Part shown: positions 1 through 61,105 of the stretch, piece after piece
Numbering within the stretch: position 1 is the first letter of the stretch
How the letters are laid out: every line of letters begins with the position of its first letter
Assembly (NCBI GenBank): GCA_024679065.1
Contig: JAGIQG010000006.1
Location: 85,064,001-85,128,000 of the forward strand
DNA length: 64,000 bases
Reading direction: 5' to 3'
DNA from: Sphyrna mokarran
Taxonomy: Eukaryota
Position numbers and translations under genes: made by a program
The notes under the pieces: model-generated
Seen by the model: the letters and a program-made list of their open reading frames with translations, nothing else
What the model was told of the DNA's origin: nothing
Databases searched by the model: none

Positions 1-263
1 AAGGGCAAGGGCAGCAAATGCATGGGAACATTACCATCTGCAAATTCCCCTTCAAACCATACAGCATCCTGACTTGGAACTCTATAGCAGTCCTTTTACT
101 GTCATTAAGACAACATCTCCCTCTCTAACAGCACTGTGGATTTACCTACACCACGTGTACTCCAACCGTGGCTCACTGCCACCTTCTCGAGGGCAAATAA
201 GAACAAACAATTAAAGTGTGCTAACTTAGCCAGTGACACCCATATTTGGTGGAAATAAAAAAA
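1..263 (+). mobile_element. 3' end of a decayed LINE (CR1/L2 group)
   Basis: Tail ...ccaccttctcgagggcaa...gccagtgacacccat plus A-rich end; related sequence at ~47770-47980 (+) and ~54030-54180 (-). Confidence 0.5.
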
Positions 264-2568: not shown

Positions 2569-2761
2569 GTGGAGATGCCGGCGTTGGACTGTGGTGGGCC
2601 CAGTAAGAAGTCTCAGAACACCAGGTTAAAGTCCAAAAGGTTTATTTGGAATCGCGAGCTTTCGGAATGCTGCCCCTTCACCTGATGGAGGAGCAGAACT
2701 CCCAAAGCTTGTAATTCCAAATAAACTGTTGGGCTTTAACTGGTGTTCTGAGACTTCTTAC
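2569..2761. mobile_element. Palindromic Penelope-derived mini-element with decayed hammerhead motif
   Basis: Arms gtaagaagtctcagaacacca (2603) and tggtgttctgagacttcttac (2761) are reverse complements; same terminus as the PLE at 31119-32650; centre cctgatggaggagcagaactcccaaagc. Confidence 0.8.
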
Positions 2762-4096: not shown

Positions 4097-4394
4097 GGAT
4101 GGTACCGTGCTTAGCGGTGCTGCCTCACAGGGCCAGGAACTTGGGTTTGATTTCTGACTTGGGTACTATCTATGCAGAGTCTGTACGTTCTCCCCGTGTC
4201 TGTATGGGCTTCCTCCGAATGCTCTGGTTTCCTTTCACAAGTCCTAAAGACGTGTTGTTAGAGTGCTTTGGCCATGCTAAATTCTCCTCAATGTACCTGA
4301 TCAGGTGCTGGAATGTGGCAGCTAGGGGATTTTCACAATAATTTCATTGCAATGTTAATGTAATTCTACTTGATTCATCAATAAATAAACTTTA
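4097..4394 (+). mobile_element. HE1-like tRNA-derived V-SINE, tail type B
   Basis: tgctgcctcacag head, ttctccccgtgtctgtatgggcttcctcc core, tail ggggattttcaca..cattgcaatgttaatgtaa..aataaataaacttt. Confidence 0.75.
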
Positions 4395-4694
4395 AGAGAA
4401 TGCTTAGTTTAAAATGGACAAAATGGTACTTTCTGCAGTGAGTTTAATTTGTACATACCATTCAAACACCTCAATTCCCTGCCATTAAATGTATTTCAAT
4501 AGTGAGTTAGCCCAGCACGCTGTTGTTTTAATGAAGTTATGGCAGTGTTGTGCCTCTCAGATAGCAACTTTTGGATTTCCACTTCTAACAGCACTATTTC
4601 ACTTGCCTGAAGTTGCTGTAACATTTTCATCAATAACAGTGAGTGCTATTCATTTCATAATTATTTTGATATCAAACAGTGGCCCATTATTTGA

Positions 4695-4887
4695 TACAAA
4701 AACAGAAAATGCTGAAAATATTCAATAGGTCTGGCGGTGTCCGTGAAGTGCAAAACAGACATTTGAGTCGTATTGGACATGAAACATCAGCCCTGTATCT
4801 TTCCCCGCATGTACTGTCAGACTTGCTGTATTTTTAGCACTTTGTTTGTATTTCAAATTTCCAGTATCCACTATATTTTGCTTTTAT
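4695..4887. mobile_element. Decayed palindromic element, second PLE-like terminus family
   Basis: aaaacagaaaatgctgaaaata...tatttttagcactttgtttg form imperfect inverted arms, with tail tttcaaatttccagtatccactatattttgctttt; related to 48018-48350 and ~60100-60400. Confidence 0.6.
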
Positions 4888-5009
4888 GTCCATTATTTGA
4901 TGTTGTGAACAAGAAAGATTGAATTCTTCATACACATACTAACATCACAAAAGCAACCCTTCCAAATCACACATTTAAAAATGGAAGTTAAACTATCCTG
5001 TTGGATTTG

Positions 5010-5385
5010 TGGATAAATGCATAGCCTTGCATGATATTATGTTATACAGACAACAAAGGTCCTGGGTTTGATTCCCAAACACGACTGAGCTAGCTGATCT
5101 TAGTTGACAGTAAGAGTGTTACAATTGGTAACAAAACCATTTGGCTATGAAGGGGGAAAATGTTAGGCAAAGTACCCACTCTGTCTTTACTATCCAGTGA
5201 CCCACGCTGAGAAGTATGCATGTTGGTGAAGACAAATCAGACTTGGTTTTGATGCAATACACCAGCCAGCGCTCAGTGTCTAGACTCAAATGTAAAAAAT
5301 GGTCACTTGGGAAAGATATTGGAGGCCTGCCAGCACATTTGAAATCATACCCCAGAATGAGTCAGCACCTTCAGGAAAGGAGAGA
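5010..5385 (+). mobile_element. Old tRNA-derived SINE-like element
   Basis: B-box-like ggtcctgggtttgattccc at ~5058-5076 followed by a ~300 nt body; family not identified. Confidence 0.4.
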
Positions 5386-5444
5386 ATAAAATGGGAACTT
5401 ATGAGAAACTTCACTCTGTTCTCAATTGCTTTGTCTTTTTGCAG

Positions 5445-5564
5445 ATGTGAACGAATGTGATGGAAGCCACAGGTGCCAGCACGGTTGTCAGAACATGCTG
5501 GGAGGTTACAGGTGCAGCTGTCCTCAAGGCTACATACAGCACTATCAGTGGAACCAGTGTGTTG
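5445..5564 (+). CDS. FBN2: Fibrillin-2 internal exon (one cbEGF domain); upstream exons lie outside the window
   Basis: Acceptor ttgtctttttgcag and donor GTTG|gtgagc; 120 nt, phase 1 to 1; encodes [40 protein letters not shown], the fibrillin cbEGF containing the QHYQWNQC motif. Confidence 0.95.
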
Positions 5565-6761
5565 GTGAGCATCATAGGGATGCCAGTATTAATACTGTTT
5601 TCTGTAGATGCAGGAAGTCTGCATTTCTATTATTTAAATTATAACTACTTATATCAGCACAAAAAATCTTTCAACATGTAAAATAACATGAAGCATTTAT
5701 TTTTCTACTAAATTGAATTGGCTAGTGTAGTTTATTAAAGAATTATATAAAAGATGGCTTCCTGGCTTTGTAATGTCATAGAAAGTGATGATTTTCATCA
5801 CATTAAGTTTAGCCTGAGGGTCAACTTTAAATATTCAGTTCTTCCCCACAGTTTTGAGAGATGAATGTTGTGGCTTGATTATATTTGCTTTATTGAGAGG
5901 TACAAAAATTTGTAATAGGAGATTTTACCTGTGGTGTCTTATATCATTTAATACATTAAATGTAAGGTGGATGGGAAGAATGTGTTACCTTGGGTTTCTG
6001 AGCATTTATTCCATTAATGAAAAAAAAAATTGCATTTTTTTAAAATTAAATGTTAGTGACCCTTCTTTCTTTTTGTCTATTTCTCTTGATTCAGTCAAAT
6101 CTTGGTTCACAAGTCATTTTTTGTAGTTCAGTTGAATTAATTCCACCTATCTTCATGGAAATTTTAATGTGGACTGAATGAACAAAACAAAACTAATTTT
6201 TAATGTAGAATCTACCACAAGCAAAATTGTCATTACTTTGATCTGTTTTGGATGTGTTTCTCCTAACTTTATAGACTTCACTGCATAACTGGGATTTGGT
6301 GGGTAAGGGGTCTTTGGGAGGGAGGATATGATGGCTAACAGGGTCCATACTGAAACAAAATGGATTATACAAAAATTGAAGACAATTTTTTTTGGCGAGA
6401 AGCCTGCTTGAATTAGATTTGTAAGTAATATCAGTTCTGCTATCAGGCCAGGAAAAAAAATCTTGTGCCTTAATCATTTTCTGTGCTTTCATGTTATTGA
6501 AAACCCAACTGGTAAGTAGTTTCTTAAATTTGCTATACTAGTACCAGATGTTGAGCAGCCTGCTACGTTTCTAGCAAATAAAACCATAATTAGCTCAAAT
6601 GGTTGTTTCACTTTACTAGGCAGAGTTAACAAAAATTAGCTAAATATGAAGTATTCCTCCATCAAGGAAATTCTATTCAGCTGTGATGCATTACCATGTT
6701 ATTTGTGATAACATAGTTTGGCTAATCAGCCATTCCAGCAGCATTCCTTCACAATTTGTGT

Positions 6762-7125
6762 TCATTCATTCATGGATTGTGGTCTTCGCTGGTCATTGAA
6801 AATGTTGTGGTGAGCCACTTTTTTGAGTGAAACTGGGTGGTTTGGTAGACCATGTCAGAGGGCAGTTAAGAGTCAACCACGTTGCTGTGGGTCTGGAGTC
6901 AGAGCAGGTAAAACAGCAGGTTTCCTTCCCTGGAGGACATTAATGAACCAGATGTATTTTTATAACAATCCTGCAGTTTCATGGTCATCAACTGCTACTA
7001 GCTTATTCCAGATTTATTTAATTAAGCAAGTTTTAATTCCCCAGCTGCCACGGTAGGATTGAAACTAGTATTTCCAAATCATTATTGCAGACCTTTGGAT
7101 TACTTGCCTAGTAACAGAACCAATA
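6762..7125 (-). mobile_element. tRNA-derived SINE with LINE-like tail (family 2)
   Basis: agagggcagttaagagtcaaccac..gtgggtctggagtc..ggacattaatgaaccagatg; homologous to 9781-10148 (+) and to the split copy at 31045/32651. Confidence 0.7.
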
Positions 7126-7229
7126 TTCTTTGGTTAGCATATATGCCTGAATAGATTACAGCTTTTTCTGTGATTGAGTCAATTGAAGATTAGAGACTAC
7201 ACAAAACAGCAAGATTAAGAAATTGGCAT

Positions 7230-8050
7230 AAATATGGGTGCAGATATTTGTATGAGAGAGGGGTTAAGGTAAGACAGGAAGGTAGTGAATTCAAAAGATG
7301 GAGGGCATGGTGTGTTGAAGTGGAAATTAAAATCATTGAGGATGAAAGATTGCTCACTGCAGAGACTGAAGGAAGGCAAGCTAGAGAGATGGAATAAGGT
7401 TGTGCTCAAAGAAGAGGGTTCAAGAGTAGTAGGGGAACAGATCAAGGTGAGATTTGGTAAGAACGGTCACATCACCAATGCAGTTGTTTGATCATGACAG
7501 ATGATGAAAGAATAACCAGGTGGAGAGGCTTCACTAAGGTGGAAGGAGAGCCATATTTCAATAAAGGTCATAATATCAATACAATTATTAACAATATGAC
7601 TATAGTCTTGTTAGAAATGAACAGACATTTTAAAGAGAGACAAGAAATGGATAATGATTGCTGATCCAATGAAAGAAATCATGGATTCTGCAATAAGAGG
7701 AATGTGCAGGACTTCAGAGGTTGGCAAGGATCTTTCCTAATGGACATGCCATTTCGGGAGTTTAGGAGAGTAAGATGAAGATGTTGCGTTTGCTCCTCTT
7801 AAGGATCCGAGAAAGAAGATATAAAAAGAGACAGAATTGGGTTACAGGAAAATGTGGAGGCAAGGGAGAGAGACTGATGAAAAGAAAAAGGAGGAAGGTA
7901 GAAATGATGGACTAGATTTTGGAACATTAACCAGAATGTATGGGACAGAAGGAAATTTGGGTTAAACAAACATGGTAATATTAAGATAGGAAGATCCTGG
8001 TTATAAATGGAGAGTAGAGAGAAGACAATAGTTGAAGTCAGAGATCCCAT
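7230..8050 (-). mobile_element. Decayed L2-like LINE fragments
   Basis: ORF 7215-7445 contains ILNDFNFH (endonuclease GDFN-like motif); the purine-rich + strand is typical of antisense L2. Confidence 0.4.
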
Positions 8051-15324: not shown

Positions 15325-15473
15325 TGAATGTTTACAACTGAATTGATGTATAGGGTCAATTTTAACTCTTTACAAGCCTTGAATGAGTTAAGATTTCATC
15401 CACGATGGCAGTTCTGATTTTAAATTCCACACATCGTATCAAATTCTAATCTCTCTCTTAATTTACTCCATAG

Positions 15474-15645
15474 CCATTGTGTGTCTGGCATGGGATTTAA
15501 TAAAGGCCAATATCTGCCTTTTGGTGGAGATCCTGATGATGAAAATCTTTTGTCACATGAAACATGCTATGAATGTAAGATCAATGGCCACTCCAAGAAT
15601 GGTGGCAGAAAGAGAAGAAGTGTCAATAGTACTGCATCGGATCAG
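15474..15645 (+). CDS. FBN2: Fibrillin-2 penultimate exon with furin cleavage site
   Basis: Acceptor tttactccatag and donor GATCAG|gtaact; 172 nt, phase 2 to 0; HCVSGMGFNKGQYLPFGGDPDDENLLSHETCYECKINGHSKNGGRKRRSVNSTASDQ. HCVSGMGFNKGQYL is FBN2-type; RKRR lies at 15607-15618. Confidence 0.95.
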
Positions 15646-15950
15646 GTAACTGTCTCTTTTGTAAATAAACTGAACAGCAACAGGTTTTCTTTGTATGAAA
15701 TAAATTGGACCAGAACTAAGGATTTAGAGATTCTAAGTTATATAGTCAAAAATATTAAGTCTTCACTTCATGGAAATGAAAAATGTACACTTGTATATCC
15801 ATCAAATAAAGAATTTTATGTTCGGAAGTATTTAAATATTGACTGCCTTTGCAGCCTAATTTGAAGTTTCCCAATGACAGGAATGAAACATGTTAATGAT
15901 TTCACAGGTACGCATTACTAATAATCCCTTGCTATTTATTTTGATGCTAG

Positions 15951-16325
15951 GATCAACAGGTTAGTTTGGCTAGTCTGGATATAGACAACCCAGTCAAAAT
16001 GAATCTAACTATCTCGGAGCTGAACCACAAGAATCATATTTTGGAATTTGTGCCAGCAATTGAACCACTCAACAATCATGTTCGCTATGTGATCTCCTAC
16101 GGAAATGACAATAACTACTTCCGTATCCACCAAAAGGATGGTTTGAGCTACCTGCACTTGACCAAGAGGAGGCCTCTGGAAGGTACTTACACACTTGAAA
16201 TCACCAGTATTCCTCTCTATAAGAAAAAAACACTGCAGAAACTGGAAGATAAAAAAGACAATGACTACCTCCTCGGTGAGCTGGGAGAAGCACTCAAAAT
16301 GAGACTACAAATCCAGCTTCATTAA
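15951..16325 (+). CDS. FBN2: Fibrillin-2 terminal coding exon (C-terminal propeptide, placensin-like)
   Basis: Acceptor ttttgatgctag; [15 protein letters not shown]...[19 protein letters not shown], stop TAA at 16323-16325; matches the FBN2 C-terminus ([19 protein letters not shown]). Confidence 0.95.
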
Positions 16326-20250: not shown

Positions 20251-23200
20251 TTAGAAACATAGAATAGTATAGCACAGTACAGATCCTTAAGCCATCAATG
20301 TTGTGCCAAGGTATAGTCAAACTAAGATTAAGCTATCCCACTCCTTACCATTCTGACGTATTCTATGTGCCTATCCAATAACTGCTTGAAAATTCTTAAC
20401 ATGTCAGACTCTATCACAGCAGGCAGTGTATTCCACACCCCTACCACTCGCACATCCCTCCTATTATCTCCTACCATGAACCTTATAGTTATGCCCTTAG
20501 TAACAGCTACATCCACCCGAGGAAATAGTCTCTGAATATCCACTCTATCTATCCCCCTCATCACCTTATAAACCTCTATGACGTCATCTCTCATCCCCCT
20601 CTGCTCTAAAGGGAAAAGCACCAGCTCTTCAACCTTCCCTGCTAAGATCTGCCCTCTAAACCAGGCAGCATACTGGTAAATCTCCTCTGCACTCTCTCCA
20701 ATGCTTTCACATCCTTATAATGAGGTGACCAGAACTGCACACAATATTCCAAATGTGGTCTCACCAACATCCGGTATAGTTGCAGCATAACCCCACGGCT
20801 CTTAAACTCAAACCCCTGTTAATAAATGCTAACACACTATAAGCCTTCTTCATGGCTCTACCTACTTGAGTGACAAAATTCAGAGATGTGTGGATATGAA
20901 CCCCAAGATCTCTCTGTTCCTCCACATTCCTCAGAACCTTGCTGTTTACCTGCGCTCATGTTTGCTCTACCAAAATGAATCATCTCACACTTATCAGGGT
21001 TAAATGCCATTTTACCATTTTTCAGTCCAGTTTTGTACCCTATCAATGTCTCTTTGCAGCCTGCAAGAGCCCTCCACCTTATCCACTAGACTGCTCCACT
21101 AGTCTTGCTGTCATTAGCAAATTTATAAGCCCCTTCTTCCAAGTCATTAATAAAAATCATGAATAGCAGCAGACCCAGCACTGATCCCTGTGGCACACTA
21201 CTGGTAACTGGTCTCCAATTTCAACATTTTCTTTCCACTTCTACCCTCTGTCTTCTATGACATAGCCAGTTACTTATCCAATTGGCCAAATTTCCTTCTA
21301 TCCCACACCTCCTTACCTTCTTCATGAGCCTACCATGGGAACCTTATCAAATGCCTTACTAAAATCTATGTATACAACATCAATTGCTCGACTTTCGCCT
21401 ACACACTTAGTTACCTCCTCAAAGAATTCAATCAAATTTGTGAGACAGGACTTACTGTTCACAAAACCATGCTGACTACCCCATATTAAACTTTATCTTT
21501 CTAAATAGTCATAAATCCTATCTTTCAGGACACTTTCCATTAACTTACTGAGCACTGAAGTAAGACTAACTGGCCTATACTTACCAGAGTCATTTCTATT
21601 TCTTTTCTTGAAGAAAGGAACAACATTAGCCACAATCCCCATGGACAGTGAGGACCCAAAGATCAAAGCTAAAGGCTCTGCAATTTCATCCCTTATCTCC
21701 CAAAGTATCGTAGGATGTATCCCTTCTGGCCATTGACCCTCAGGTTTTTCAAAGTTGCTAATACGTCCTCCCTCAGAACATCTACCTCCTCCATCCCATC
21801 AGCCTGTATCATGCACTCATCCTCAAAAACGTGGCCCCTTTCCTTGGTGAACACTGAAGAAAACTATTCATCAACACGTCATCTATCTATTTTGATTCCA
21901 TGTACAAGTTCCTACTACTATCTTTGACTGACCCTAATCTCGTCCTGGTCATTCTTTTATTTCTCATAAAAGTAAAAAGTCTTGCAGTTTTCCTTTATCC
22001 AACCCACCAAGGACTTCTCATGCCTCCGCCTAGTTCTCCTAAGCTCTTCCTTTAACTCATTCCTAGCTACTTTGTAACCCTCAAGTGACCCTTGAACTGA
22101 ACCTTGTTTTTTCACCCTTACCCTTCTTTTTGCCTCTTGACAAGATAATCAACCTCCTTTATGAACCATGGTTCCCTCGCTTGGCCATTTCCTCACTGGC
22201 TGCCAGGGACATACCTAATAAGGACATGCAGTATTTGTTCTTTGAAACAGCTCCACTTTTTGTACCCATACCTGAATAGTTTCTCTTCCATTTTATGTTC
22301 CCTAATTCTTGCCTAATTGCATCATACTTACCCCTGCCCCAATTATAAACCTTGCCCTGCCGTGTGCCCCATTCCTCTCTATTGCAATAATGAAAGATAC
22401 CAAATTATGGTCACTATCTCCAAAGTGCTCTCCCACAATCAAATCTAATACTTGGCCCAATTCATTGCCCAGTACCAAGTCCAATGTGGCCCCACCTCTT
22501 GTCAGCTTATCAATATATTGTGTTAGGAAACCCTCCTGCACACTGTACAAAAAAGTGTCCATCTGAACTATTCATCCTATAAATGTTCCAATCAATATTT
22601 GGGAAGTTGAAGTCACCCATGATAACTGCACTGTGACCTCCACACCTATCCATAATCTGCTTTGCCATTTCCTCCTTTACATCTCTATTACTATTTTGGG
22701 GGCCAATAGAAAACTCCTAACAACGTGACCGATCCTTTTCTATTACTAAATTCAGCCCATATTACCTCAGTAGGCAGATTGCCCTCAAAATGCCTTTCAG
22801 CAGCTGTTGAACTATCCTTGATTAACAATGCTATCTCTTTTACCGCCTTCCCTGCTCTTACTGAAACATCAAAACCCCGGAACTGCCAACAACCATTCCT
22901 GTCCTTGTTCTAAACATGTTTCCATAATGGCCACAACATCATAGTCCCAAATACTAATCCACACTCCAATTTCACCTATCTTATTCCTGATGCTCCTTGC
23001 ATTGAAGTAGATACACTTCAACCCATCATCCTGTCTGCTTGTACACTCCTGCAACCTTGATACTTTTCTCAGTACCTCACAATCCTCAACACTGGCTTTT
23101 GGACTACATCTCATTTTCCCATCTCCCTGACAAATTAGTTTAAACTCTCCCCACCCCCTGCTGCCCCTCTGGTTCAGGTGTAAACCATCCTGTTTGTACA

Positions 23201-23330
23201 TGTTCCACCTTCTCCAGAATATGCTCCAATTATCCAAGTACATGAAACCCTCTCTGCTACACTATTCTTGCAGCCACATATTAATCTCCACTCTCTCCCT
23301 GTTCCTCAACTCACTAACACATGGTACTGG
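20251..23330 (-). mobile_element. CR1 LINE, 5'-truncated and degenerate (ORF1 esterase end plus ORF2 endonuclease/RT)
   Basis: DGLHLNQRG (SGNH esterase), YFNARSIRNK, LDLVLGNE..VGEHFGDSDHN, MAFNPDKC, LFPLEQR; tail tagaaacatagaa at 20252. Confidence 0.92.
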
Positions 23331-23399
23331 CACGTCTTGCTCAGAATATTGTTCTATGCCACTTAAGGATGGAAAAGATCTTGTGCTATCCTCTGGAAC

Positions 23400-24130
23400 T
23401 ACAGATAAAATTAACAGAGCTATTGATTTGCTCAATGATGCTCTTCTAATTTGCATCACTGATTATCTCCTATCCCTCATTTGCCCCTAAAGTCTGAGGA
23501 AGATCTGCTATTACAATTGGCCAAGTATCTGGAACCACATGGGCCTCATCAAACGCTTTGATCTTTGGCAAAACCATCCAATATTCCAGAATTATCTTGA
23601 GGGCTGAAATAAACATACGATTCTTTTCTCTACAACCAACTACTTCCTTAAGCAGCTGTTTCTTCACCATCATCTCAAAGACCAATTATAAGAAGTTAAT
23701 GGATTTTTTAAAAATCAAGGATAACTAACAATAGAGTTGCCTCCATTGCATCCACCCCTTCCTTTCGCTCACAAGTCACAACTTTCCCATCCTAAGTCAA
23801 ACCCTACCTCAAACTATGAATGCCTGATTGTTTGCAGCTCCTCCTCCACCTCCATATTTCTCTTTACAGTATTATTCATCAGACCTATCTCTTGCATCAT
23901 CAATTCACTTTCTATGCAAATCTTAACCATTTTGACCTAGAAAGCTGTTGATAATGGTTCCAGACCCTCAGTGGTCATATACCTTCCCTTCAAACACAGC
24001 CATCCTCTACAAAATTACTTAGTTGCCTGATCTCCAACTTCTCATCCCTCTCCAAGGTTCTTGGATATGGCATTTCTTCATGGATCACTTCCCATTTCTC
24101 TTATAATATCCTGCTTGACTCTCTCAAGAT
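23400..24130 (+). mobile_element. Decayed L2 LINE fragment
   Basis: atctccaacttctcatccctctccaaggttcttgga resembles the L2 ISNLPFLSKVLE motif; pyrimidine-rich sense strand. Confidence 0.45.
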
Positions 24131-24923
24131 ATAGCATCTATACAATGAGGGCCATGTTGCCGCAAGACATATGGCAGAGCATAATAACAATTCCACTGCT
24201 TTGGCCATTCTGGAGGATTCCTTAAGTGTTTAGCTTCATGTGTACCAACATCTGTTATTATATTCAGAATGCTGTATACAACCATGACATTATAAGGGGA
24301 GGGGCGGGGGCATTCCTTGCCATCAGGTAGAGGAGGGAGAAGTGGAGAGGTGGAGGGACAGCAACAACAATTATAAGATCATTGCCTGGATTTTCAAAGG
24401 ATTGGGCCGAGTTGAGAAGCCTTTCAAAATTGTAGATGGGACAAGATAATAGGACTTCTATGATAATTTTCACTATTTTGATGTGTCCTTGCACTTATTT
24501 ATTTTCCATCACAACATATGCATCCTGTAAACTGTAACTATGAACCCTGTCCACATGTCTTAATTAAAGGGTGCCCTTTTAAATCACATAAGTGACTGAT
24601 TTTGTCCTGTGGGTAGGTTCACCACCTGGAAGCAATGCCTACCTCTGTCTTCCACAACAAAGGGAAAATCCTGCCCCCCCTCCCCAAAACATATAGTTGC
24701 TGGAAATCTGAAATTAAAAAAAGCAAGTCACTCACCAACTGAAGAGAGAAAAGACAAGTTAATGCATTGAATATGGACTCCTCTATCCAAGAACTTAACC
24801 AGAATCATCAATAAAGATCATCTAGGTTGTCTTCCAATTTCCACAATTTCCATAGGACACTCACTGTTGATAGCTAAATGGCAGGAGTGACACTTGTGGA
24901 ATATTATTTTAGCATTTATGGGT

Positions 24924-25014
24924 GAACATAGAACATAATAAGAACGTAAGAACTAAGAGCAGGAGTAGGCCATCTGGCTCCTCAAGCCTGCTCTGCCATT
25001 CGATAAGATCATAG
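24924..25014 (-). mobile_element. Older CR1 3' tail (left part, split by a younger CR1)
   Basis: gaacatagaacataataagaac..gagcaggagtaggccat..ccattcgataagatcatag; continues at 28336. Confidence 0.8.
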
Positions 25015-28000
25015 AACATAGAACAATACAACACAAACAGGCCCTTCAGCCCACGAGTTGCGCCGATCACATCTACCAATCCACAGACCTATCTATAACC
25101 CCCTATCCTATTCTTTTCCATATACTCATCCAGAAGTCTCTTAAAAGACCCCAGTGAGTTTGCCTCAACAACCTCCGACGGCAGTCGGTTCCATTCACTC
25201 ACCACCCTCTGAGTGAAAAACCTACCCCTGACATCTCCTTTGTATTTGTTTCCCTGCACCTTAAATCTGTGTCCTCTCGTAGTGACCATTTCAGCTCGGG
25301 GAAATAGTCTCTGAGAGTCCACCCTACCTATTCCTCTCAACATTTTATAAACCTCTATCAGGTCGCCTCTCAACCTACGTCTCTCCAGTGAGAAGAGTCC
25401 CAGCTCCCTCAACCTATCTTCATAAGGCCTGCCTCCCAATCCAGGCAGCATCCTTGTAAATCTCCTCTGAACTCTCTCAATAGCCTCTACATCCTTCCTA
25501 TAATGAGGCGACCAGAACTGCGCACAATACTCCAACTGGGGTCTGACAAGAGTCTTATAGAGCTGCATCATTACCTCCTGACTCCTAAACTCTATTCCTC
25601 AATTAATGAAGGCCAGTACACCGTACGCCTTCTTGACCACTTCCTCCACCTGCGAGGCCGATTTAAGAGTCCTATGGACCCGGACCCCGAGATCCTTCTG
25701 CTCTACAACATAGCTAAGACTCCTACCCCTTATATTGTACTCCTTCATCCCATTATTCCTGCCAAAATGGACCACTACACATTTATCTGCGTTGAAGTCC
25801 ATCTGCCACTTCTCCGCCCAGTCTTGCATCCTGTCTATGTCCCGCTGCAACTTTTGGCATCCCTCCAGACCATCCACAACACCACCGATCTTTGTATTGT
25901 CGGTGAACTTGCTAACCCATCCCTCCACTTCCTCATCCAGGTCATTTATGAAAATGACAAACAGCAGGGGTCCCAGAACAGATCCCTGGGGCACTCCACT
26001 GGTTACCGACCTCCATGCAGAACAAGACCCATCCACAACCACTCTCTGCCTTCTGCCGGCAAGCCAGTTCTGGATCCATGAGGCCAAAGCCCCTTGGATC
26101 CCATGCCCTCTCACCTTCTCCAGAAGCCTTGCATGGGGGACCTTATCAAACGCCTTACTAAAGTCCATGTACACTACGTCCACCGCTCTTCCTTCGTCAA
26201 TGTGTTCAGTCACATTTTTGAAGAACTCAACTAGGCTCGTAAGGCATGACCTGCCCTTGACAAAACCATGCTGACTATTTCTAATCAGTCCAAACTTCTC
26301 CAAATGTTCATATATCTTATCCCTCAGAAGCCTCTCCATCAGCTTACCAACCACTGAAGTCAAACTCACCGGTCAGTAATTTCCTGGACTATCCCTGTTC
26401 CCTTTCTTAAAGATAGGAACCACATCCGCAATCCTCCAATCCTCTGGAACCTCTCCCGTTTCCATGGATGACGCAAAGATCATCGCCAGGGGCTCTGCAA
26501 CCACTTCCCTCACCTCCCACAATAACCTGGGGTACATCCCATCCGGTCCCGGCGACTTGTCTATCTTGATAGAATTTAACAGGTCTAACACATCCTCTTT
26601 TCTAACATCCACATACAATCTTTTCCGTATGCCGCAAACCTGCAGTGCAATCTCCCAGTTCACTTTCCACTGTGAATACCGAGGCAAAGTACTCGTTAAG
26701 CACCTCTGCCATTTCTTCCGGATTCACACAGACTTTTCCCCCTTCACCTTTTATAGGCCCTATCCCTTCTCTTCTCATCCTTTCACTTTTCACATAATTG
26801 TAGAAGGCCTTGGGATTCCCCTTAATCTTACCTGCCAAGGCCTTCTCATGACCCCTTCTGGCTCTCCTAATTTCCTTTTTAAGTTCCCTTCTACACACCT
26901 TATACTCCTCTAGATCCCTAACATCCCCTAGTTCTCTGAATCTTTTATATACCATTTTTTTCTTCCTAACTAGGTTCACCACTACCTTCGTGCACCACGG
27001 TTCCCGCGTCCTACCTGAACTTCCTTGACTCCTCGGAACGTTGTCTTGCAGTGCCCTAGACAAACATTCCTTGAAAAACCATCACTTTCCTTCTGTACTC
27101 TTCCCCAAGAATACCTCCTTCCAGTTTATGCGTCCAATTACCTGCCTAATGTTTTCATATTTCCCCTTACTCCAGACATATACCTTCCTAGCCTGCCTGA
27201 TCCTGTCTCTTTCCATCACTATCGTGAAAGAGATAGAATTATGATCTCCATTCCCAAGATGCTCACCTACCATGAGATCCGACACCTGCCCTGGCTCATT
27301 AGCAAGCACCAGGTCAAGTACAGCCTCTCCTCTTGTATGCTTTTCCACGTACTGTGTCAGGAAACCTTCCTGAACACACCTAACAAACTCCACACCATCC
27401 AAACCCCTTACCCTTGGGATATTCCAGTCGATGTTTGGGAAATTGAAATCTTCCATCACGACAACCCTGTTATTTCTACATCTGTCTAGGATCTGTTTCC
27501 CTATCTGCACCTCAAGTTCCCTGCCGCTGTTGGGCAGCCTATAGAATACACCCAGCAAAGTTATCGAGCCTTTGCTGTTCCGCCCACAGAGACTCCGTAG
27601 ACAATCCCTCCCCGTCTTCCACCTTCTCTACAGCCATGACACTATCCCTGATCAACAGTGCCACACCACCTCCTCTTTTGCCCCCAACCCTGTCCCTCCT
27701 GAAGCACCTGAATCCTGGCACCTGAAGTACCCAGTCCTGTCCCTGAGACAACCAAGTCTCTGTAATGGCCACCACATCACACTCCCAAGCAGCAATCCAC
27801 GCCCTAAGCTCATCTACCTTATTTACTACACTCCTGGCATTAAAATAGACACACCTCAGCCCCTCAGTCAGGATATTTCCCTTTTCCACCACCTGCCTAA
27901 CCCCCCTCTCAGAGTGCCTACAGTGCTTCCCTACCTTGGAACTAACCTCCTTATTCACCGTCCCATCGGTATTCCCACCCCCCAGCTTTTCTAGTTTAAA

Positions 28001-28335
28001 GACTCCCCAGTAGCCCTAGCTAGCCTACCTGCCAAGATATTAGTCCCCCTAGGGTTCAAGTGCCACCCGTCCTTACTGTACAGGTCACACCTGCCCCTAA
28101 AGAGGTCCCAATGATCTATGAACCTGAATCCCTGCCCCCTGCTCCAGTCCCTCAGCCATGCATTCATCCTCCACCTCATTTGATTCCTGCTCTCATTCTC
28201 CTGAGGCGCAGGCAGCAATCCTGAAATTACTGCCTTAGCTTTTCTCTTCCGCAGCTTCCTACCCAGTTCTCTATAATCCCTTTTGATGACTGCCTCCCCC
28301 TTCCTGCCGATGTCTGCAGTACCTATATCACCACT
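25015..28335 (-). mobile_element. Relatively young CR1 LINE, 5'-truncated within ORF1, ORF2 frameshifted
   Basis: ORF1 esterase (DHWDLF..DGWHLNPRG), endonuclease (YFNARS, AITETW, DFNFPNIDW, GNGDHN), RT ([23 protein letters not shown] in place of FADD), C-terminus LEYCAQFWSPHY; flanked by GATCATAG at 25007-25014 and 28336-28343. Confidence 0.96.
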
Positions 28336-28600
28336 GATCATAGCTGGTTTTTCATGGATTCGGCTCCACTTACCCGCCCGCTTTCCATAACCCTTCGTTC
28401 TTTACTGTTCAAAAATTTATCTATCTTTGCTTTAAAAACATTCAATGAGATAGCCTTGACTGTTTCACTGAGCAGGGAATTCCACAGATTTACAGCTGTT
28501 TGTGTGAAGGAGTTCCTCCTCAACTCAATCCTAAATTGGCTTTCCTTTACTTTGAGGCTATGCCCACTAGTTCTAGTTAACATTCCTCTCAATGATATTT
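28336..28600 (-). mobile_element. Older CR1 3' fragment (right part)
   Basis: ORF 28338-28733 TSGHSLKVK..FRIELRRNSFTQTAVNLWNSL matches the CR1 ORF2 end. Confidence 0.85.
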
Positions 28601-30112
28601 GTGATGAATTAATGGCAATAATTGTATAATATCGCACTCTCTTTGGTATGTTTTTAACCCAGTTAGAATAGAGAGCATAGAAAAATTTTATATAACCATA
28701 TAATGTGTTTATTCTGAACATTGCAGAAAGCAATTTTACCTCATAGAAAGAAAGTCAATATTTATCAAAATAATAATAATTAAAATGTTAATTTGTTGTA
28801 ATGATTAGATACATCTTCAATAACATGCTCATGGCTTATCAAGTTGCAGGAATTCCCAGGCGTTTACTTAATTGTCCCAAGCACTGTAATAATAGCACCC
28901 TGTTCAGAAGTTTCATTCAAAGCAGCAGGAAATCAGCCTTTTCCATGCACCCGACTGTGGCTATTTCTAGACGTCACATGTTATATTTAAGCACTTGGAT
29001 TTTGATTACACTGTCACTACAATTATCTAACAACAAGGAGTAAAGGTTTGAATGCCAAAAGAATGGATGAATACATTTTCCTTAGCCAGCAAGTGACTAC
29101 AGAAGGAGTATACAGCACAGATTTTTCTGTTCTGAAATATGCTTACAAGTTCCAACGTCAAATAACACATGTATTAATAATCAAATTCACTGTCTTTGGG
29201 CAATGCATTCATTGATATAATTTGATGCATCAAACCCTCTTCAGTTGCTACCACTTACATCTTGTGTTCTTGCCAAAAGCTGGGCTGATAAATTCAGGGA
29301 TCTGACTTGCATCAGGATTATCTTCTCATGATTTTGAGGCAGAAAACAAGTTACATTCTACTTTTTGACGAAGAAGAGTAAATAAGAGGTCTTTAATCGG
29401 TGTGCTAGAGCACACTGGTGCACCATGAGAAGAGTGCAAGGGTGCTGTGGCTATAGGGCACATTTTGTATCTTTGTAGAAGTAGTAGAAGGTGGGGGGGA
29501 GGGAGAGGCTGCAAAGAGACACTTGTGTTACATTGTGGAATCAGTGACATTCAGACACACACGCACACGCTAAATGATCCACATCTCAACATGTCAGAGA
29601 GCCAGGGATGGAGTCTTCAAACTGATCATTCAGGAGAAATCTGGCAAGAAACCTACAGGAACTCAATTCTAAAACTTTCTCCAGTGAGTGTGGACAGTCC
29701 CCACTCTGGTTCTGTGTGTGTGTGTGTGCTCCTTCTGTCCCAAAAGGCTGACATGAGCTTGGATCTGCTTCTTTTCCCTGATATTTAATCTTCTCCCTGA
29801 CAAGGGGAAATGGGGAGAATGGGCTTTATTATTCAAGCTCTGACCTGCATTTCATCACTCTAGCCATACACAGCAGTAGATAAGTGAAAAACAGACTCAT
29901 TACCTGAGGCCCTTCACTTCAGGGAACATGGTTGTGCCGTTCTGTACCCATTGCATGCCAGCTACACTGGGGGCTTCCTTTCAGGGCATCCCAGGGTTAG
30001 AAGCTGTTCCTCATTCCCTCCAACAGTGATCTCACTAACTCCAGTTGGCAAGGTTGAGACGGAGATGCATAGTAAGCTGGAGTCTTGGACGCCCCATATT
30101 TCCAGATTTTTA

Positions 30113-31044: not shown

Positions 31045-31118
31045 GCATTTATTGCCCATCCTTAATTGCCCTTAAACTGTGGACCTGGAGTCACAGATAG
31101 GCTGGACCAGGTAAACGC
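31045..31118 (-). mobile_element. SINE family 2, left part (split by the Penelope insertion)
   Basis: gcatttattgcccatccttaattgccctt tail then ctggagtcac..gaccaggtaa; resumes at 32651. Confidence 0.7.
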
Positions 31119-32650
31119 AATAAGAAGTCTCACAACATCAGGTTAAAGTCCAACAGGTTTATTTGGTCGCATGAACCACTAGCTTTCGGAGTGCTGTCCC
31201 TTCATCAGGTAAGTGGGAGTTCTGTTCTCAAATAGAGCATATAAAGACGCAAACTCAATTTAGAAAATAATGGCTGGAATGCGAATCTTTACAGGTAATT
31301 AAATCTTAAAGGTACAGACAATGTGAGTGGAGAGAGGGTTAAGCATAGGTTAAAAAGATGTATATTGTCTCCAGCCAGGACAATTAGTGAGATTTTGCAA
31401 ACCCAGGCAAGTCATGAGGATTACAGATAGTGTGACATGAACTCAAGATCCCAGTTGAGACTGTCCACATCTGTGCGGAACTTGGCTATCAGTCTCTGCT
31501 CAGTCACTCTATGTTGTTGAGTGTCAAGAAGGCCAACTTGCAGAACGCTTACCCAAAGACCAGAGGCCAAATGCCTATGACGCTGACCATTCCCCAACGG
31601 AAGAAAACACTCTTGCCTGATGATTGTCAAGCGGTGTTCATTCATCTGTTATCATAGCATCTGCATGGTCTCCCCAATGTACCAAGCTTCAGGACATCCT
31701 TTCCTGCAGCGCATCAGGTAGACAACGTTGGCCGAGTTTCAAGTGTATGTACAGTGTATGTGCTGGATGGTATTCTCACATGAGATGATGCCATCCGTGT
31801 CAATGATCTGGCTCATCTTGCTGAGGCTGCTGTGGCAGGGATGTGTGGTGTCATGTTTATTGTTCTCCTGAAGACTGGGTAGTTTGCTGCGGACAATGGT
31901 CTATTTGAGGTTGTGTGGTTATTTGAAGACAAGAAGTAGGGGTATGGGGAAGGTATTGACGAGAAGGTATTCATCTTCATTGATGACATTGTTGAACACT
32001 CTGGAGAAGACATCATAGCTTCTCTACTTCGGGGAAGTACTGGACAACAAAGGGTACTCTGTCCGTTGTGTCCCGTATTTGCCTTCTGAGGAGGTCAGTG
32101 CGGATTTTCACTGTGGTGCATTGAAACTGTCGATCAATGAATTGAGTTCCATATCCTGCTCTTATGAGGGCATCTTTCAATGTCTGGAAGTGTCTGTTGT
32201 GATCCTCCTCATCTGAGCAGATCCTGTGTACCCGTAGGGGATGGCTTCTTTAACATGTTTAGAATGGAAGCTGAAGAAGTGGATCATCTTGAGGTTATCC
32301 ATTGGGCTTGCGGTACAGTGAAGTGCTAGATGACCATCCTTGATGGAACTACATGTGTCCAAGAATGCAACTGATTCTGGAGAATAGTGCATGGTGAGTC
32401 TGATGGTAGGATGGAACTTGTTGATATCACCATATAGTTGTTTCAGTGGTTGTTCACCATGAGTCCAAAGGAAGAAAATGTCATCGATGTAGCATCGGTT
32501 GAATGTCCTGTGCAGTGAAGAGGTTTTGTTGGGAGCAGCACTCTGAAAGCTAGTAGCTTGTGCTACCAAATAAACCTGTTGGACTTTAACCTGGTTTTGT
32601 GAGACTTCTTACTGTGTTTACTCCAGTCCAATGCCAGCATCTCCACATCC
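31119..32650 (-). mobile_element. Penelope-like element (RT plus GIY-YIG endonuclease remnants) with inverted terminal arms
   Basis: RT YIDDIFFLW..FHPTIRLT..VAFLD (ORF 32177-32569); GIY-YIG SANVVYLMRCRKGCPEAWYIGETMQ (~31662-31736, antisense) and EQRLIAKFRT..LN.D; the arms at 31119-31195 and ~32538-32612 are reverse complements. Confidence 0.92.
31176..31212 (-). ncRNA. Minimal type I hammerhead ribozyme motif in the PLE terminus
   Basis: The minus strand reads UUAC CUGAUGA A GGGA CAGCAC UCC GAAA GCUA GUGG: intact core boxes, short stem II, palindromic AGCU stem III and stem I UUAC/GUGG. Activity is not shown. Confidence 0.75.
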
Positions 32651-32847
32651 AGATTTTCTTTCCTTAAGGAACATTAGTAAGCCAAATGGATTTTTACAAC
32701 AATTGTTTCATGGTCATCACTGAATTTTTAATTCCAGCTTTCAATTAAATTTAAATGTCCTCATTTGCCACAGTGGGATTTGAACTTAGGTATCCAGAGC
32801 ATTACCCAGGATCTCTGAATTACAATTCAGTGACAATACCAATATGC
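32651..32847 (-). mobile_element. SINE family 2, right part
   Basis: cagattttctttccttaaggaacattagtaagccaaatgg..gtgggatttgaac (antisense B box) continues the copy at 31045-31118. Confidence 0.75.
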
Positions 32848-33351
32848 ATAGTAAGAAATCCCACAACACCAGGTTATGCACAGAGGTATATATTTAGCAT
32901 ATTTCATTGATAATTACAGAAGAGAATGGGACATTGCATTTTTCGAGAAAGATGTTTTGTGCTTGCAAATTTTATTGAATATTCATCTTTTGTACTCACC
33001 AGTCTTTGGGACATGAGTATAAAAGCTAGGTCTCCCTTTTATCTGCTTTTATTGTAAAGACGGTTTGTCTTAGGTGATCCTCAACTTGATAATTTTAATG
33101 CTGTAGGTTCACTCAAAGCAACGTAAAGATAGCAAAGGGTCACATTCATTGATCATTGCAGGCTGATATAAGCATTTCTAAGTGCTGCACAGATGTCCTC
33201 TGGATCAGTAATCACTACTGAGTGTGTACCACAAAGCTTCATACCCTAGGCTGCTCCAGCTGGTAGACTACACAGATTTAGAAATTGCTCTACAAATGAG
33301 TTGAAATAAAAAAAAATCCACATTAGTATCAGGGAGCTGAGATCTCACTAT

Positions 33352-33613
33352 GGCTAGGATTTTCTGCCCTCTCCCCGTAGTGGGATTTCCCCACATCTGG
33401 TATAACAAGCTATGGCTACCAGTGAGATCTTCGACTGAAACCTTCCAGTTTTTGAATATTTTGCCTGTCTCCAGAATCGGTTGCATTCTTGGTCATAAGC
33501 ATCTCCATCAAGAATGGTCACCTCAGCACTTCACTGTACCACCACTGGGAAATCTGCTATGAGGATCAGAAGCAGAAGATCCTGCCCGCGGAATGGGCCT
33601 AAAAATCCCAGCC
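33352..33613. mobile_element. MITE-like element
   Basis: The termini ggctaggattttct and aaaaatcccagcc are near reverse complements. Confidence 0.55.
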
Positions 33614-37659: not shown

Positions 37660-38317
37660 TAAGTATTGGCCACAGAGTCGAATACTGTCCATGGTTTAAA
37701 CGTCCAGAGTCACAGGTTAAGTTACAGCCATTTAACAGGTTTTATGGCAGTTATGCAAAGTGTGGTCTTACAATCCATAATATTCAATGTGCCCATGCTT
37801 GTACTGAACATGACACTTGTACATTGCAATATTTGCAAAGGGATTAAACTAGCTTCCGATGTTGGAGTAAGTGATGTGATGTCTCATGTGCTGGATAATG
37901 GCGAGGACAGACTGTCCATATTTGTCACTCGCACTCTCAGTGCCTGTGAGTGAAATTATGCTCAAATAGAATGTGAAATATTGCCTTTGATTTTTCAAGT
38001 AAGAAGATGATCCTAGTTTCATGAACGAAACTTGAGGCAAGCAACTGACAGGTATTTTGAATCCAAAGTCTTTAACACAGCTACTGCCTGCATGCAGAGA
38101 TGGGCTTTGATTTTGTCTGCTTATAAGTAGAGATAATCATAAGATCATTGCTGTGCCCATGCAATTTCAAGGGTAGAACCAACAGGGAGGGTGTACTTTT
38201 CCTTTTGCATACAGATGAGTTGCCAGCACAACAAATAATACTGGTAGTACAACTCAAAGAGATTAACAAGGATGTACATCTATGAGTGGTCAACACAGGG
38301 ACTGGATTTAGAAATAA

Positions 38318-38515
38318 AGTAAGAAGATTGACAACACCAGATTTAAATCCAACCGATTTATTTCATAGTAAGCTCACAAGCTTTCGACCTGTGGCTTTTG
38401 AGGCCATAGGTCGAAAGCCTGTGAGTTTACTATCAAATAAATCGGTTGGATTTAAATCTGATGTTGTCAGACTTCTTACTGTGTTTACCTTAGTCCAATG
38501 CCGGCATCTCCACAT
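38318..38515. mobile_element. Near-perfect palindromic PLE-derived mini-element with 14-bp target-site duplication
   Basis: agtaagaag..ccagatttaaatccaaccgatttattt..gctttcgacct / aggtcgaaagc..aaataaatcggttggatttaaatctg..cttcttact; tail agtccaatgccggcatctccacat; ATTTAGAAATAAAG at 38306-38319 and 38514-38527. Confidence 0.88.
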
Positions 38516-38860
38516 TTAGAAATAAAGCCTTTTTTTATGCGTAAGAATGAGTTGTCAGCTGATAAAAGTTGCGTCACATGAGGGATCCACTTGTCATTCC
38601 TGAAAAGTGCAGATTGCAGTTGCTATGTGATTTTCATGACCAAAACTTGGGATAAGATTGACAAAGAGTCTAGCAAGAAGTTATCTTTTGCAGCCAAGGT
38701 TAGATAAGGGCTTTGCAGATGCAATGAAAACTGTATGGATCATGTCAAACAGTAGAAAAGAAGCCTCCATCAGTACATTCACACGTAGTCTAGTGATGCA
38801 GCCTCCCACACCATTGCTTCTGACATATCTCCTTTCTTGCTCAACCGAGGAGTCCCACCC

Positions 38861-48489: not shown

Positions 48490-50173
48490 TAGGTATTATT
48501 TTTGTGCATTGTTAATTTTCAGCACATTTTAAACTTTAGTTTCTAACTTTTGCAATTACAACTCTAAGAGCAACTTTGGCTAACTCCAGAATCTCATAAT
48601 CTCATTCATATGAATGTTGAGTGTGTCCAGCAACAAGGAAGAAAGGCTGTGTGTGTTTTTCAAGTCAGTAAATATAACCTAACCTTGGAATCATAAATTA
48701 TTCAGCAGCATTGCACACAGGAATAAATGCAGCTGTACTAATTTGCTTACCTTCAAATTTAACGGAATGTTAATGAAAAATAAATGACATGGCTTTGAAA
48801 ATATAGAGGTAGAATTGTTACTATATTATATAAATTTCTAACACAATTTACCTAATATTACCCCAAACCAAAACCAGAGATTAAGGTATTAAAAATGTGA
48901 CTCTAGCTTCCATGGTCTGCTGAGCTTATTTAAAAATAAAGTCACATTTGGACCCAGTATTATCACAAAATAGAAAGGCCCATTTTGGCACTAACCAACA
49001 ACTTCCATTTTTGCTTTCTGAGGCACAATTTAGGTATCTTTTGGAAGGACACAATCATTCATACAGATGGCTTCTCAAAGACAAATCTGCCAAATATTTG
49101 GTACTCATTAAGCAGAGGTGAGTTTGCTGCTTTGGCACATTTGGATGATAGGAGATGAATGTGCACCCAAGATTAATCTGTATGGCCATGTAGCTGAAAC
49201 CAGAAGATCAATATAAGGCCACAGCTCCACTTCAAGAATGCTGTCAAGAATAAAATGAAGGCCCTAAGCACCGGTTTTCTCACCTGGGAGACATGGGCTG
49301 ACAAAGGAGGAAAATGGTGACATCATCTGTGGGTCAATGTGTCGAACAGTGGTTGGGCAACAGGTGCCAATAACAAAAACAACAATCCAAAACATTGCAA
49401 CACACAAAGGGTGATAGAAGTTTGAAATTCTGTTCTGCAAATAGAATAGTCAATTTGTTCTTGACTATTCTATTACTTCAACAGACTTTTCACTCTCCTT
49501 ATTCAATGTAGCAACTCATTTATGGTACATGCATTTGGCTTACATTGAATTGAAAGATGGGGTTATGATTTGTTCTGCAGTTGATATATGTGTTGACTAG
49601 TTTGCATCTCTAGACATCTGAAACATGGACAGTAAGCATGAATTGAGGTGGTTTATTTACGGTGTTAGAAAATATGGTGGGGTGGAATTTCCATACATAT
49701 TCTCCAGAACTTTACATAACCTCAGCAGGAGATTGCCAGAAACTCCAAAGAAATGGCATTGACAGTCAGATACATCCCCCAAGAATCCATAAACCTTATG
49801 GAGGAAAATTGGGAGAACACTAAGACCTACTCAACACTTTCCATTTTCAAACTTGGTGAAAAAGAAACTTTCTCTTCTAGGAGAGATAAAAATGAGCAGC
49901 GTTAACTTTCAGCAGACACATGACAGGGCATACTTCGCAAACCACAGACAACTAAAAGCATTGTCTACTCAAAAGATGAGGCTGGTCAGTCCATTCAGTC
50001 AAATGTTTTAAACAAATGCACTTTGAATTTTTCCAGTGATTCCCCAAATGGAGATTAGTACAAGTCCTGGATAAATGGCTAAAAATGATAAGTTACGGTG
50101 CTTCATCAATTTTTTACTGCAGCTTTAGTGGGAAATTTGAAAACCCCTATGAAAATTCAGGCGCCCCTACATT

Positions 50174-50925: not shown

Positions 50926-51042
50926 ATGTGGAGATGCTGGCATTGGACTGGGCTAAATGCAGTAAGTAGTCTCACAACACTAGGTTAAAGTCCAACAGGT
51001 TTAGTTCTGTTGGCCTTTAACCTGGTGTTGTGAGACTTCTTA
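50926..51042. mobile_element. Palindromic PLE-derived mini-element, centre deleted
   Basis: Tail atgtggagatgctggcattggactggg; arms agtctcacaacactaggttaaagtccaacag / ctgttggcctttaacctggtgttgtgagact. Confidence 0.85.
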
Positions 51043-51569
51043 TTTGGACTTCTTCCCAGTGAGTGACACTTCTCGTTCCTGTGTTTTAAAGACTGTGCCA
51101 CAAATAGCCTGCAAGATGTTCTGGGATTTGCTCTTTTGCATTTCCACTGGTGCAGTCCTGTTCGAAAGTCCATGTAAAACAGATACAAGTAACTGAACAA
51201 GCTAGCTGGAAACAGCATAGTTGCACTTTCTGCAGCAGCAGGCTGTGGGACAAACTGATAAGGAACAAGACTTATTTATTTCATTTCACTCTTGAATAGC
51301 TTCATTACGTGTCATGGCAATTTTAACAATATATTTGTGTATAATAATGACTAAGCAGTCACCTTATGAACCTAGCAAAATATGGCATCAAGACACAGAA
51401 GAATGCAGAAATTCACTGATTCAAATTGCTAAATGTGACAATGGTAAAATCATGACCAGGAGGGCACATGTGCTGAGTATGGGTGCAACCAAGCCAGCTG
51501 GGAATCTCATGCCAACTTGGAGGGAGGTGGCACGTGCATAAGAACAAACTCCTTCATCTTCAGGAGTAT

Positions 51570-51730
51570 AGTAATAAGTTTCACAACACCAGGTTAAACT
51601 CAAACAGGAATCACCTAATGAAGGAGCGAGACTCTGAAAGCTCGTGCTACTAAATAAATCTGTTGGATGTTAACCTGATGTTGTGAGACTTCTTGCTGTG
51701 CCTACCCCAGTCCAATGCCGGCATCTCCAT
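51570..51730. mobile_element. PLE-derived mini-element with hammerhead-like core
   Basis: tcacctaatgaaggagcgagactctgaaagctcgtg; arms and tail as in the other copies; flanked by ttcaggagtata (51559) and ttcaggagcaca (51731). Confidence 0.85.
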
Positions 51731-52429
51731 TTCAGGAGCACAAGACAGTTCTCCTGAAAGTTCAGTGGCCTCACAAGGTCAGGCAAGGTAACACACACAC
51801 ACTTCTTTTCTTTTTTACCCAGACTGTGTGTCAACACATTCTTCACCCTCTCAAAAACACCACTACAACAATTAATTCTCCACTCCACACTCTGTTTAAA
51901 GACAGCTGTTCAACTTACATCCATCCACAGTTTTCTTAACAGCAATTATTTACACGCACAGTCTTTATGCTCTACTTAACATTTTCTCACCTCTTACTGC
52001 TCCCATGAACATCCCTCAACTCTTAACCTTGCCCTCATTTATTCCATCTTCTTACAGGATGAATTCCTTACCAAGATTCAGGACTAAACCTCCAGATCTC
52101 TCATACTTCCTCAAACTGGGAGGCTATTAGAACATCTTCCTTCCTTACTGCTGGAAATGCCTTGACACTTCCGGCCCTTAGTGAACAAGGGGACAACAAT
52201 GTGTCTGCTTAACTAAGGAGACTTGAGGATGGAGAAAGAAAAAGAAGAATGAAGATGGAGATGAATTAGAGTCAAATCAGGTACATGAACACAAGAAACT
52301 AAGAACATAAGAAGGAAAAGAATAGATAATTTGGTGCGGTGAATCTGCTGCATCATTGAATAAGATTGAGGCTAATTCTGATCAATTATTGATTCCAATA
52401 GCCTTTCAGCCTTTTGTTTATCGAGAGTC

Positions 52430-60400: not shown

Positions 60401-60440
60401 AAGAAGGTCTTACTTAGATTTCTCTGTTAGAACTCTTACA

Positions 60441-60570
60441 AAACCATGTTAAAGAACAACAGGTTTATGTGGTATCATGAGCTTTTGGAGCACTGTTCCT
60501 TCATCAGGTGAGTGGCGCCACTTTAACCTGGTGTTGTGCCCACTCCAGTCCAATGCCAGCATTTTCATAT
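60441..60570. mobile_element. Decayed PLE-derived mini-element
   Basis: aacaggtttat..gagcttttggagcactgttccttcatcaggtgag (antisense CUGAUGA core), then actttaacctggtgttgtg..ccagtccaatgccagcat. Confidence 0.75.
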
Positions 60571-61105
60571 CTTAAATTTGGACAAGTTGAGGCCAATACT
60601 ACCTTTAATTTATTTATATACTTTCCACTTGACGAGGAAGATAGTTTTGTCACATTTGTCAAACGACTGCTTAACACTGTATCAGGAAGTTTACTAATGA
60701 ACTATTTTGGAAGGCTGCAAAATTCATATTATTTCCATTGGAAGCAGAAAAACAAATAAGAGGGTTGTCTGTGTGCATACTGTGCTCACCCCCACAACCA
60801 AAAATATCATTGAAGGTCAACAGACCTTTTCATGGTCTGCCCCTTGCCTGCCAAGGGTATCCTTGCGGGCAGAATGGGAAATTTGTGCCTATGTCTCCAG
60901 TGTCTCCACACTGGCAGGGATCCCATTGGTAAAAGGAACATTTGATAGAATGCAAATAGCAACTGAAGTCCAAAATGACAAACACCTCGATTTTCTAAAT
61001 TGAAAAAGTTTATATACTAGTCATATTCACTTGATATGTGGTGCCAATTGCCGTAACCTGAATGTTCTCCAGATGATTAGTTAGTGCTGTTATTTGGGCA
61101 CAGAG

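Follow-up and report, generated by a model that had tools for sequence, protein, structure and literature searches.

A palindromic mini-element that probably represents two truncated PLE 3' ends joined head to head in a single insertion

What is the near-perfect hairpin at 38306-38527 of the window (the whole 64-kb stretch of DNA that was analysed), and is it a mobile unit in its own right? The initial annotation had offered two alternatives for this locus: a non-autonomous family that moves by means of PLE proteins, or the minimal product of PLE integration. Our analysis favours the latter. With a probability of roughly 80%, the element consists of two short 5'-truncated PLE 3' ends (pLTR) lying head to head, which were likely laid down in one insertion event and have likely been immobile since.

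Alignment of the two arms (38312-38395 and 38403-38486, 84 nt each) gave 89% complementarity, and folding 38319-38479 as RNA returned a single stem in which 75 pairs are interrupted by 4 mismatches; its z-score was -18.8, and 0/200 shuffles folded equally well. A single tail follows one arm, with no second copy on the other, so that the alignment and the fold bear out both the ~160 nt hairpin and the ~35 nt one-sided tail described at the outset. The element is bracketed by an exact 14-bp repeat, ATTTAGAAATAAAG, whose copies overlap each element end by 1-2 nt, in agreement with the target-site duplication and ~2 nt overlap that had been proposed. The tailed arm together with its tail (38401-38515) is ~92% identical to the subfamily C consensus. 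The suggestion that the hairpin centre is a hammerhead remnant held in part: stem II, the GAAA and the cut site are retained, but the CUGANGA core is absent from both arms. Given that both arms begin 6-7 nt into the core, this copy cannot be a ribozyme. An Rfam scan of the 64-kb window returned no hammerhead, the only matches being sub-threshold ones to microRNAs and sRNAs.

Searching with the arm and tail alone recovered hairpins, solo copies and copies in which arm and tail continue into ORF sequence (L182, L188 and L194), which confirms the association of the arms with PLE ORFs. The arms had originally been assigned to the terminus of the PLE that resides in the window; they are indeed PLE pLTR ends, but share only ~80-85% identity with that element (31110-32650) and belong to a sister subfamily (C) with ORF-bearing copies of its own. 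One whole unit (L071) runs from an inverted copy through a ~260-bp pLTR, the tail, an ATG and a ~2.6-kb ORF to a pLTR, so the tail ends at the start codon. Partial tandem pLTRs and an inverted 5'-truncated copy are present in L071, L073 and L074, and L073 (reverse complement 2217-7635) holds a head-to-head pair of 2.5-kb PLE copies that are 92% alike and carry a single tail, which is the layout of the hairpin pairs at full scale.

Translations of the parent ORF contain YIDD-type RT and GIY-YIG motifs, and the PLE ORFs have Atlas look-alikes at 0.96-0.97 (GIY-YIG, RT-thumb); among the Atlas cluster members, 18-27% carry GIY-YIG and up to 60% carry HTH_animal. Direct Pfam scans of three broken PLE fragments gave no relevant match. 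Motifs and look-alikes together identify the parent as an endonuclease-bearing PLE, in which the RT is followed by a C-terminal GIY-YIG. A C-x4-C-x2-C precedes the GIY-YIG motif in L188 and L071, and a CX2-5CxxC linker in this position marks Neptune/Nematis in the available sections of PMC8557442. The parent PLE carries Neptune/Nematis-type motifs, and the linker would place it in either of these two clades.

The parent pLTR also contains a minimal hammerhead. Across 27 copies, all chosen by their core motif, 86% of cells were paired, a level reached in 0/500 shuffles and compared with 20-43% in slid controls, and helices I and II showed compensatory changes. When helix I and the cut triplet were compared (in rows that include L062, L066, L069, L168, L176 and L182), compensatory swaps in helix I separated subfamilies, with A-U in 11 rows and G-C in 11, and the cut triplet was variable (CUA, CUC, CUU). 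Given compensatory helices beside a variable triplet, the fold was retained while cleavage may have been lost.

Table 1. Features of the element at 38306-38527 and of related PLE insertions in the window.
Position	Strand	Feature	Remark
38306-38319	.	Target-site duplication, left copy (14 bp)	Final 1-2 nt in common with arm end
38319-38398	-	Tail-less arm: PLE pLTR 3' end, 5'-truncated ~6 nt into hammerhead core	
38399-38400	.	Head-to-head junction	Single occurrence genome-wide
38401-38479	+	Tailed arm: PLE pLTR 3' end, 5'-truncated ~7 nt into hammerhead core	
38480-38515	+	PLE 'tail', ~35 nt	Directly abuts ORF ATG in full copies
38514-38527	.	Target-site duplication, right copy	Initial 2 nt in common with tail end
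2568-2761	.	Head-to-head mini insertion	Tail on left
50927-51043	.	Head-to-head mini insertion	Tail on left
51571-51731	.	Head-to-head mini insertion	Tail on right; exact 8-bp duplication TTCAGGAG
60426-60575	.	Tail-less arm from -8 plus short, internally deleted tailed partner	
32847-32876	-	Arm-end stub, 30 nt	
31120-32530	-	Sister-subfamily long insertion: 5'-truncated, broken RT-thumb-GIY-YIG ORF	
32532-32647	+	Short inverted partner arm of the 31120-32530 PLE, with tail	

To place this copy within its population we surveyed 1.624 Mb in eight blocks, one of which was the window plus the adjoining 200 kb; the blocks were set at round coordinates of our own choosing, and the sample is therefore not a random draw. 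It contained 140 arms. Short head-to-head pairs, with the 5' ends of the two arms adjoining, numbered 41, a density of ~25 pairs per Mb that extrapolates, roughly, to ~70,000 per genome. Exactly one arm was tailed in 39 of the 41 pairs, the remainder being one pair with no tail and one with two, and tails measured ~35-41 nt across the sample. Two arm calls had been excluded as self-hits, one of which (C1 16660) was later judged to be a real short tailed arm; counting it makes the one-tail figure 40/42 instead of 39/41 and leaves the stop peak discussed below unaffected. Target duplications flanked 23/39 one-tail pairs versus 2/312 mismatched-flank controls, ranged from 9 to 22 bp, and had a GC content of 31% against 40% in the sample; among the closest copies of the 38306-38527 element, 24 of 29 had one. 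Both arms belonged to the same subfamily in 40/41 pairs (39% expected), although the single closest arm was an arm's own partner in just 9/31 pairs. Pair length spanned 76-427 nt, beyond which came kilobase copies with the same layout. A degenerate pattern of the 38306-38527 junction, with 1 mismatch allowed, matched once genome-wide, and the 29 distinct closest copies showed 28 distinct breakpoint pairs.

Arms contiguous with a PLE ORF, one tail, variable duplications and differing junctions together uphold the second of the two initial alternatives, the minimal product of PLE integration. In the mechanism that we propose, the PLE protein would make a staggered cut of ~9-15 bp at an AT-rich target, and both free DNA ends would serve as primers for the reverse transcription of PLE RNA, which would begin at the tail end beside the ATG for one of them and ~35 nt further upstream, where the arm ends, for the other. 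A few matching bases, those shared by target and element, would aid each priming, and the two cDNAs would be joined 5' to 5'. The arm ends do lie ~35 nt apart, each with a few bases in common with the target. A similar process is described in the accessible text of PMC11167929 for Poseidon of Anolis carolinensis, which in vitro cuts and extends both strands of AT-rich targets and starts reverse transcription at two internal sites bracketing the tail, with uncleaved RNA as template. That work found no strand difference in the start site, so it does not account for the rule of one tail per insertion.

We then considered where the copied arms end. With the initial C of the hammerhead core numbered 0, 93 arms extend as far as position 0, and 44 of them stop within the 13 nt at -12..0; the rate there is 0.036 per nt, compared with 0.004-0.012 downstream and 0.001-0.010 upstream. 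An initiator-like A occupies -6 in all eight references examined, and TATATG lies at -35/-36 in four of the eight, subfamily C having TATGTG and subfamily D none; the initiator consensus is BBCABW, and the spacing from TATA to start is ~30 nt. Genome-wide, the base preceding ACTCACCTGATGAAGGAGCAG was C in 3351 cases, G in 483, T in 276 and A in 175, and the G:A ratio before the A at -6 (483:175, or 2.8) exceeded that at the control position -3 (228:179, or 1.3), giving a G excess at -7 versus -3 with an odds ratio of 2.2 (p = 7e-9). True 5' ends accounted for 18/20 G sites, 9/10 A sites and 8/10 T sites (L274 being a long copy by eye), and several of the G's could be traced to the target, the partner arm or a template switch. 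In L1, 5' ends that are complete and capped are marked by an additional G (PMC11702581), and Penelope transcripts in D. virilis start within the upstream pLTR (PMC2377424), according to the available parts of both papers.

We lean slightly toward run-off copying at a predicted capped start as the explanation of this stop zone. An mRNA starting in the pLTR and primed at the 5' pLTR-ORF junction would have only its ~130-nt 5' UTR copied, whereupon the enzyme would run off the capped RNA end. Run-off at the end of the 5' UTR would thus generate many stubs of ~200-230 nt that stop just before the hammerhead, with an upper bound of ~225 nt predicted for a pure 5'-UTR pair; 19 of the 41 pairs measured 194-233 nt, and 35/41 were no longer than 233 nt. 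The copy at 38306-38527 itself ends 12-13 nt short of the predicted start. The proposal extends to the life cycle of these elements, and here we see about even odds: PLEs may waste most insertions by design, capped mRNA giving rise only to back-to-back ~130-nt 5' UTR copies, whose first base is the first hammerhead base, and full copies arising only from tandem read-through. The reasoning is that internal priming at the pLTR-ORF junction would leave a normal capped mRNA able to give 5' UTR pairs and nothing else.

For the stop peak taken alone, it is also conceivable, but in our judgement doubtful, that no capped start is involved and that the RNA was trimmed to the folded hammerhead or that joining was favoured at -6. 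Helix I of the hammerhead has its first base at -6 as well, and the TATA-less subfamily D stops in the zone in 6/15 at-risk arms, as trimming would allow; the G excess, larger at -7 than at -3, and a sharper peak in subfamily A, which bears the TATA box, than in C and D combined (35:3 vs 9:7, p = 0.004) speak against it. Run-off, for its part, is weakened by a peak that is carried by subfamily A (35/83 arms) and by a weak signal in subfamily C, to which the 38306-38527 element belongs. Stops in the zone were found for 3/24 sampled arms and 5/29 further copies of subfamily C and for 0/4 at-risk arms of subfamily B, which has a TATA-like box, and the G:A count of subfamily C, taken over the first 100 of the 174 matches listed, was 32:21, not clearly above control.

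Two other origins of the 5' ends were tried and rejected. Ribozyme cleavage would place ends at the cut site (+26..+31), where 0/140 arms stop. A splice acceptor is conceivable at a conserved AG at about -14, but few arms stop there; an intron ending at helix I is reported for D. virilis in the accessible part of PMC4209133. In 9/140 arms (for example C2 113146 and W+C1215 224947) the stop fell at +21..25, where hammerhead helix III has a self-complementary AAGCTT, and two cDNAs can anneal at this motif.

An improbable alternative to two primings is fold-back, in which one cDNA, or an antisense RNA, primes on itself and copies itself into a palindrome, self-priming having been proposed for PLEs in the available text of PMC3846280. 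The AAGCTT stops and the frequent 2-6 nt overlaps at junctions suit fold-back, and arm lengths within one insertion are correlated (Spearman 0.66), which fold-back accounts for just as readily as two primings do. Fold-back of a target-primed tailed cDNA, however, requires the tail-less arm to be a subset of the tailed one, and we observed the tail-less arm to reach more than 5 nt further 5' in 11/39 pairs and the tailed arm in 12/39, which favours two primings. In the PLE resident in the window the tail-less arm is 1.4 kb long and the tailed arm 116 nt. Two primings are thus the better reading, with the AAGCTT stops and the length correlation keeping fold-back alive for some copies.

Less probable still is the first of the initial alternatives, that the hairpin belongs to a non-autonomous family whose members are transcribed and then re-inserted whole by PLE proteins. 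Such a family would be consistent with the abundance of the pairs (41 in 1.62 Mb), with the similar lengths of the 19 pairs of 194-233 nt, with the retained priming region and with the ability of PLE proteins to move pLTR-flanked sequence in trans, as given in the available portion of PMC3846280. A junction unique in the genome, breakpoint pairs that nearly all differ, variable duplications and lengths from 76 nt to kilobases argue strongly against a replicating unit. The sequence beyond the tail is also lost, and the Anolis protein required ORF sequence past its start sites (accessible text of PMC11167929); moreover, the RNA would be trapped in a stem whose folding energy is about -115 kcal/mol. 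With that sequence missing and its RNA so trapped, the stub has probably lost the ability to move. A conventional MITE, mobilised by a DNA transposase, although suggested by a short, palindromic, non-coding and multicopy form, is effectively refuted by the unique junction and differing breakpoints, by the asymmetric tail and variable centres, by arms contiguous with RT/GIY-YIG ORFs, and by duplications that range over 9-22 bp in place of the fixed short length that the initial annotation had named as the mark of a MITE.

The element is therefore better regarded as a PLE insertion of an abundant kind, probably dead, whose layout is already in print for PLEs than as the poorly described system for which it had been taken (PMC3846280, PMC8557442 and PMC4209133, in the parts available). 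Endonuclease-bearing PLEs, in the accessible text of PMC3846280 and PMC8557442, typically show inverted copies truncated at the 5' end, a tail on one side and short duplications, and the complex insertions described there share with ours an inverted 5'-truncated copy beside the 5' end, a tail of 30-40 bp at one end, duplications of 8-10 bp and head-to-head palindromic junctions. Our pairs differ from these in that both copies are reduced to ~100 nt, so that nothing of the ORF remains, and in their great abundance (41 pairs/1.62 Mb). Poseidon belongs to a different clade and its ORF starts inside the hammerhead, whereas here the ATG follows the tail; the available text of PMC11167929 describes no head-to-head minis and no stops at the transcription start.

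The minimal hammerheads of metazoan PLEs, as presented in the accessible part of PMC4209133, have the same fold as the parent pLTR and occur as pairs on opposite strands 100-700 bp apart, with many singles derived from truncated PLEs; both arms of the 38306-38527 element, by contrast, have lost the catalytic core. In L1 twin priming, per the available text of PMC11702581, two target ends likewise prime on RNA, with variable duplications and an extra G, but the products are non-overlapping segments, whereas here both arms copy the same ~90 nt, so that two RNAs or strand displacement would be needed. Non-LTR retrozymes (10.64898/2026.07.22.740005, available portion) are similarly non-coding, hammerhead-related and derived from PLE pLTRs; this assignment was rejected since they are head-to-tail tandems with a hammerhead per unit, and the present element is one inverted pair without the core. 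Our literature search, whose coverage left most subscription journals and Repbase outside, turned up no description of minimal head-to-head PLE stubs and none of stops at the transcription start.

Taken singly, the copy is an unremarkable and probably dead PLE insertion, which annotation pipelines would misread as a MITE or a microRNA precursor, and PLE mini hairpins may mimic or seed microRNA calls, as with the mir-3015 match below the gathering score. Taken as a population, the stubs give in vivo rules that can be tested in vitro: each insertion has a single tail, arms do not stop where the ribozyme cuts, and their ends accumulate at the predicted capped start. The origin of PLE inverted copies, tails and tandems is termed unresolved in the available sections of PMC8557442 and PMC11167929. 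What the present data add to the published layout is a stop zone that, judged from promoter-like motifs, suggests a TATA/initiator-predicted start, with an excess of G just upstream; this zone is a likely clue to how PLEs copy their own RNA. If the run-off account is true, tens of thousands of stubs would allow the start, the cap and the two priming sites to be mapped from genomic sequence alone in PLE families that are extinct, and insertions containing only the 5' UTR would explain why PLEs need tandems.

The same layout had been noted elsewhere in the window, and the three mini insertions at 2568-2761, 50927-51043 and 51571-51731 all proved to be head-to-head pairs with one tail each; the stub near 32850-32876 is also real (Table 1). 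The proposed recurrence at 60441-60570 stood for the tail-less arm, which is complete, but the tailed partner is so short and internally deleted that the hairpin there comes to ~19 bp. The 3' pLTR of the resident PLE (31120-32530) has the hammerhead core and lacks the full tail, and the body of this insertion has many relatives at ~80% identity. The Rfam match to mir-3015 falls on a PLE mini hairpin at 50968-51039 and scores 36 bits, where the gathering score is 59.

Several further features of the window were recorded in passing. A lone 73-nt piece of the PLE RT region lies at 33468-33540, 0.8 kb from the larger copy, and an inverted repeat at 49425-49489 has 29-nt arms with no PLE similarity. 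Open frames at 15424-16325 (+), which gave a weak cadherin-domain match (E 0.0034), resemble what we take to be the last exons of a fibrillin-type gene. LINE remains with RVT_1, exo/endo/phosphatase and GDSL-esterase frames occupy 22869-28754 on the minus strand and are, by their domain order, presumably of CR1/L2 type.
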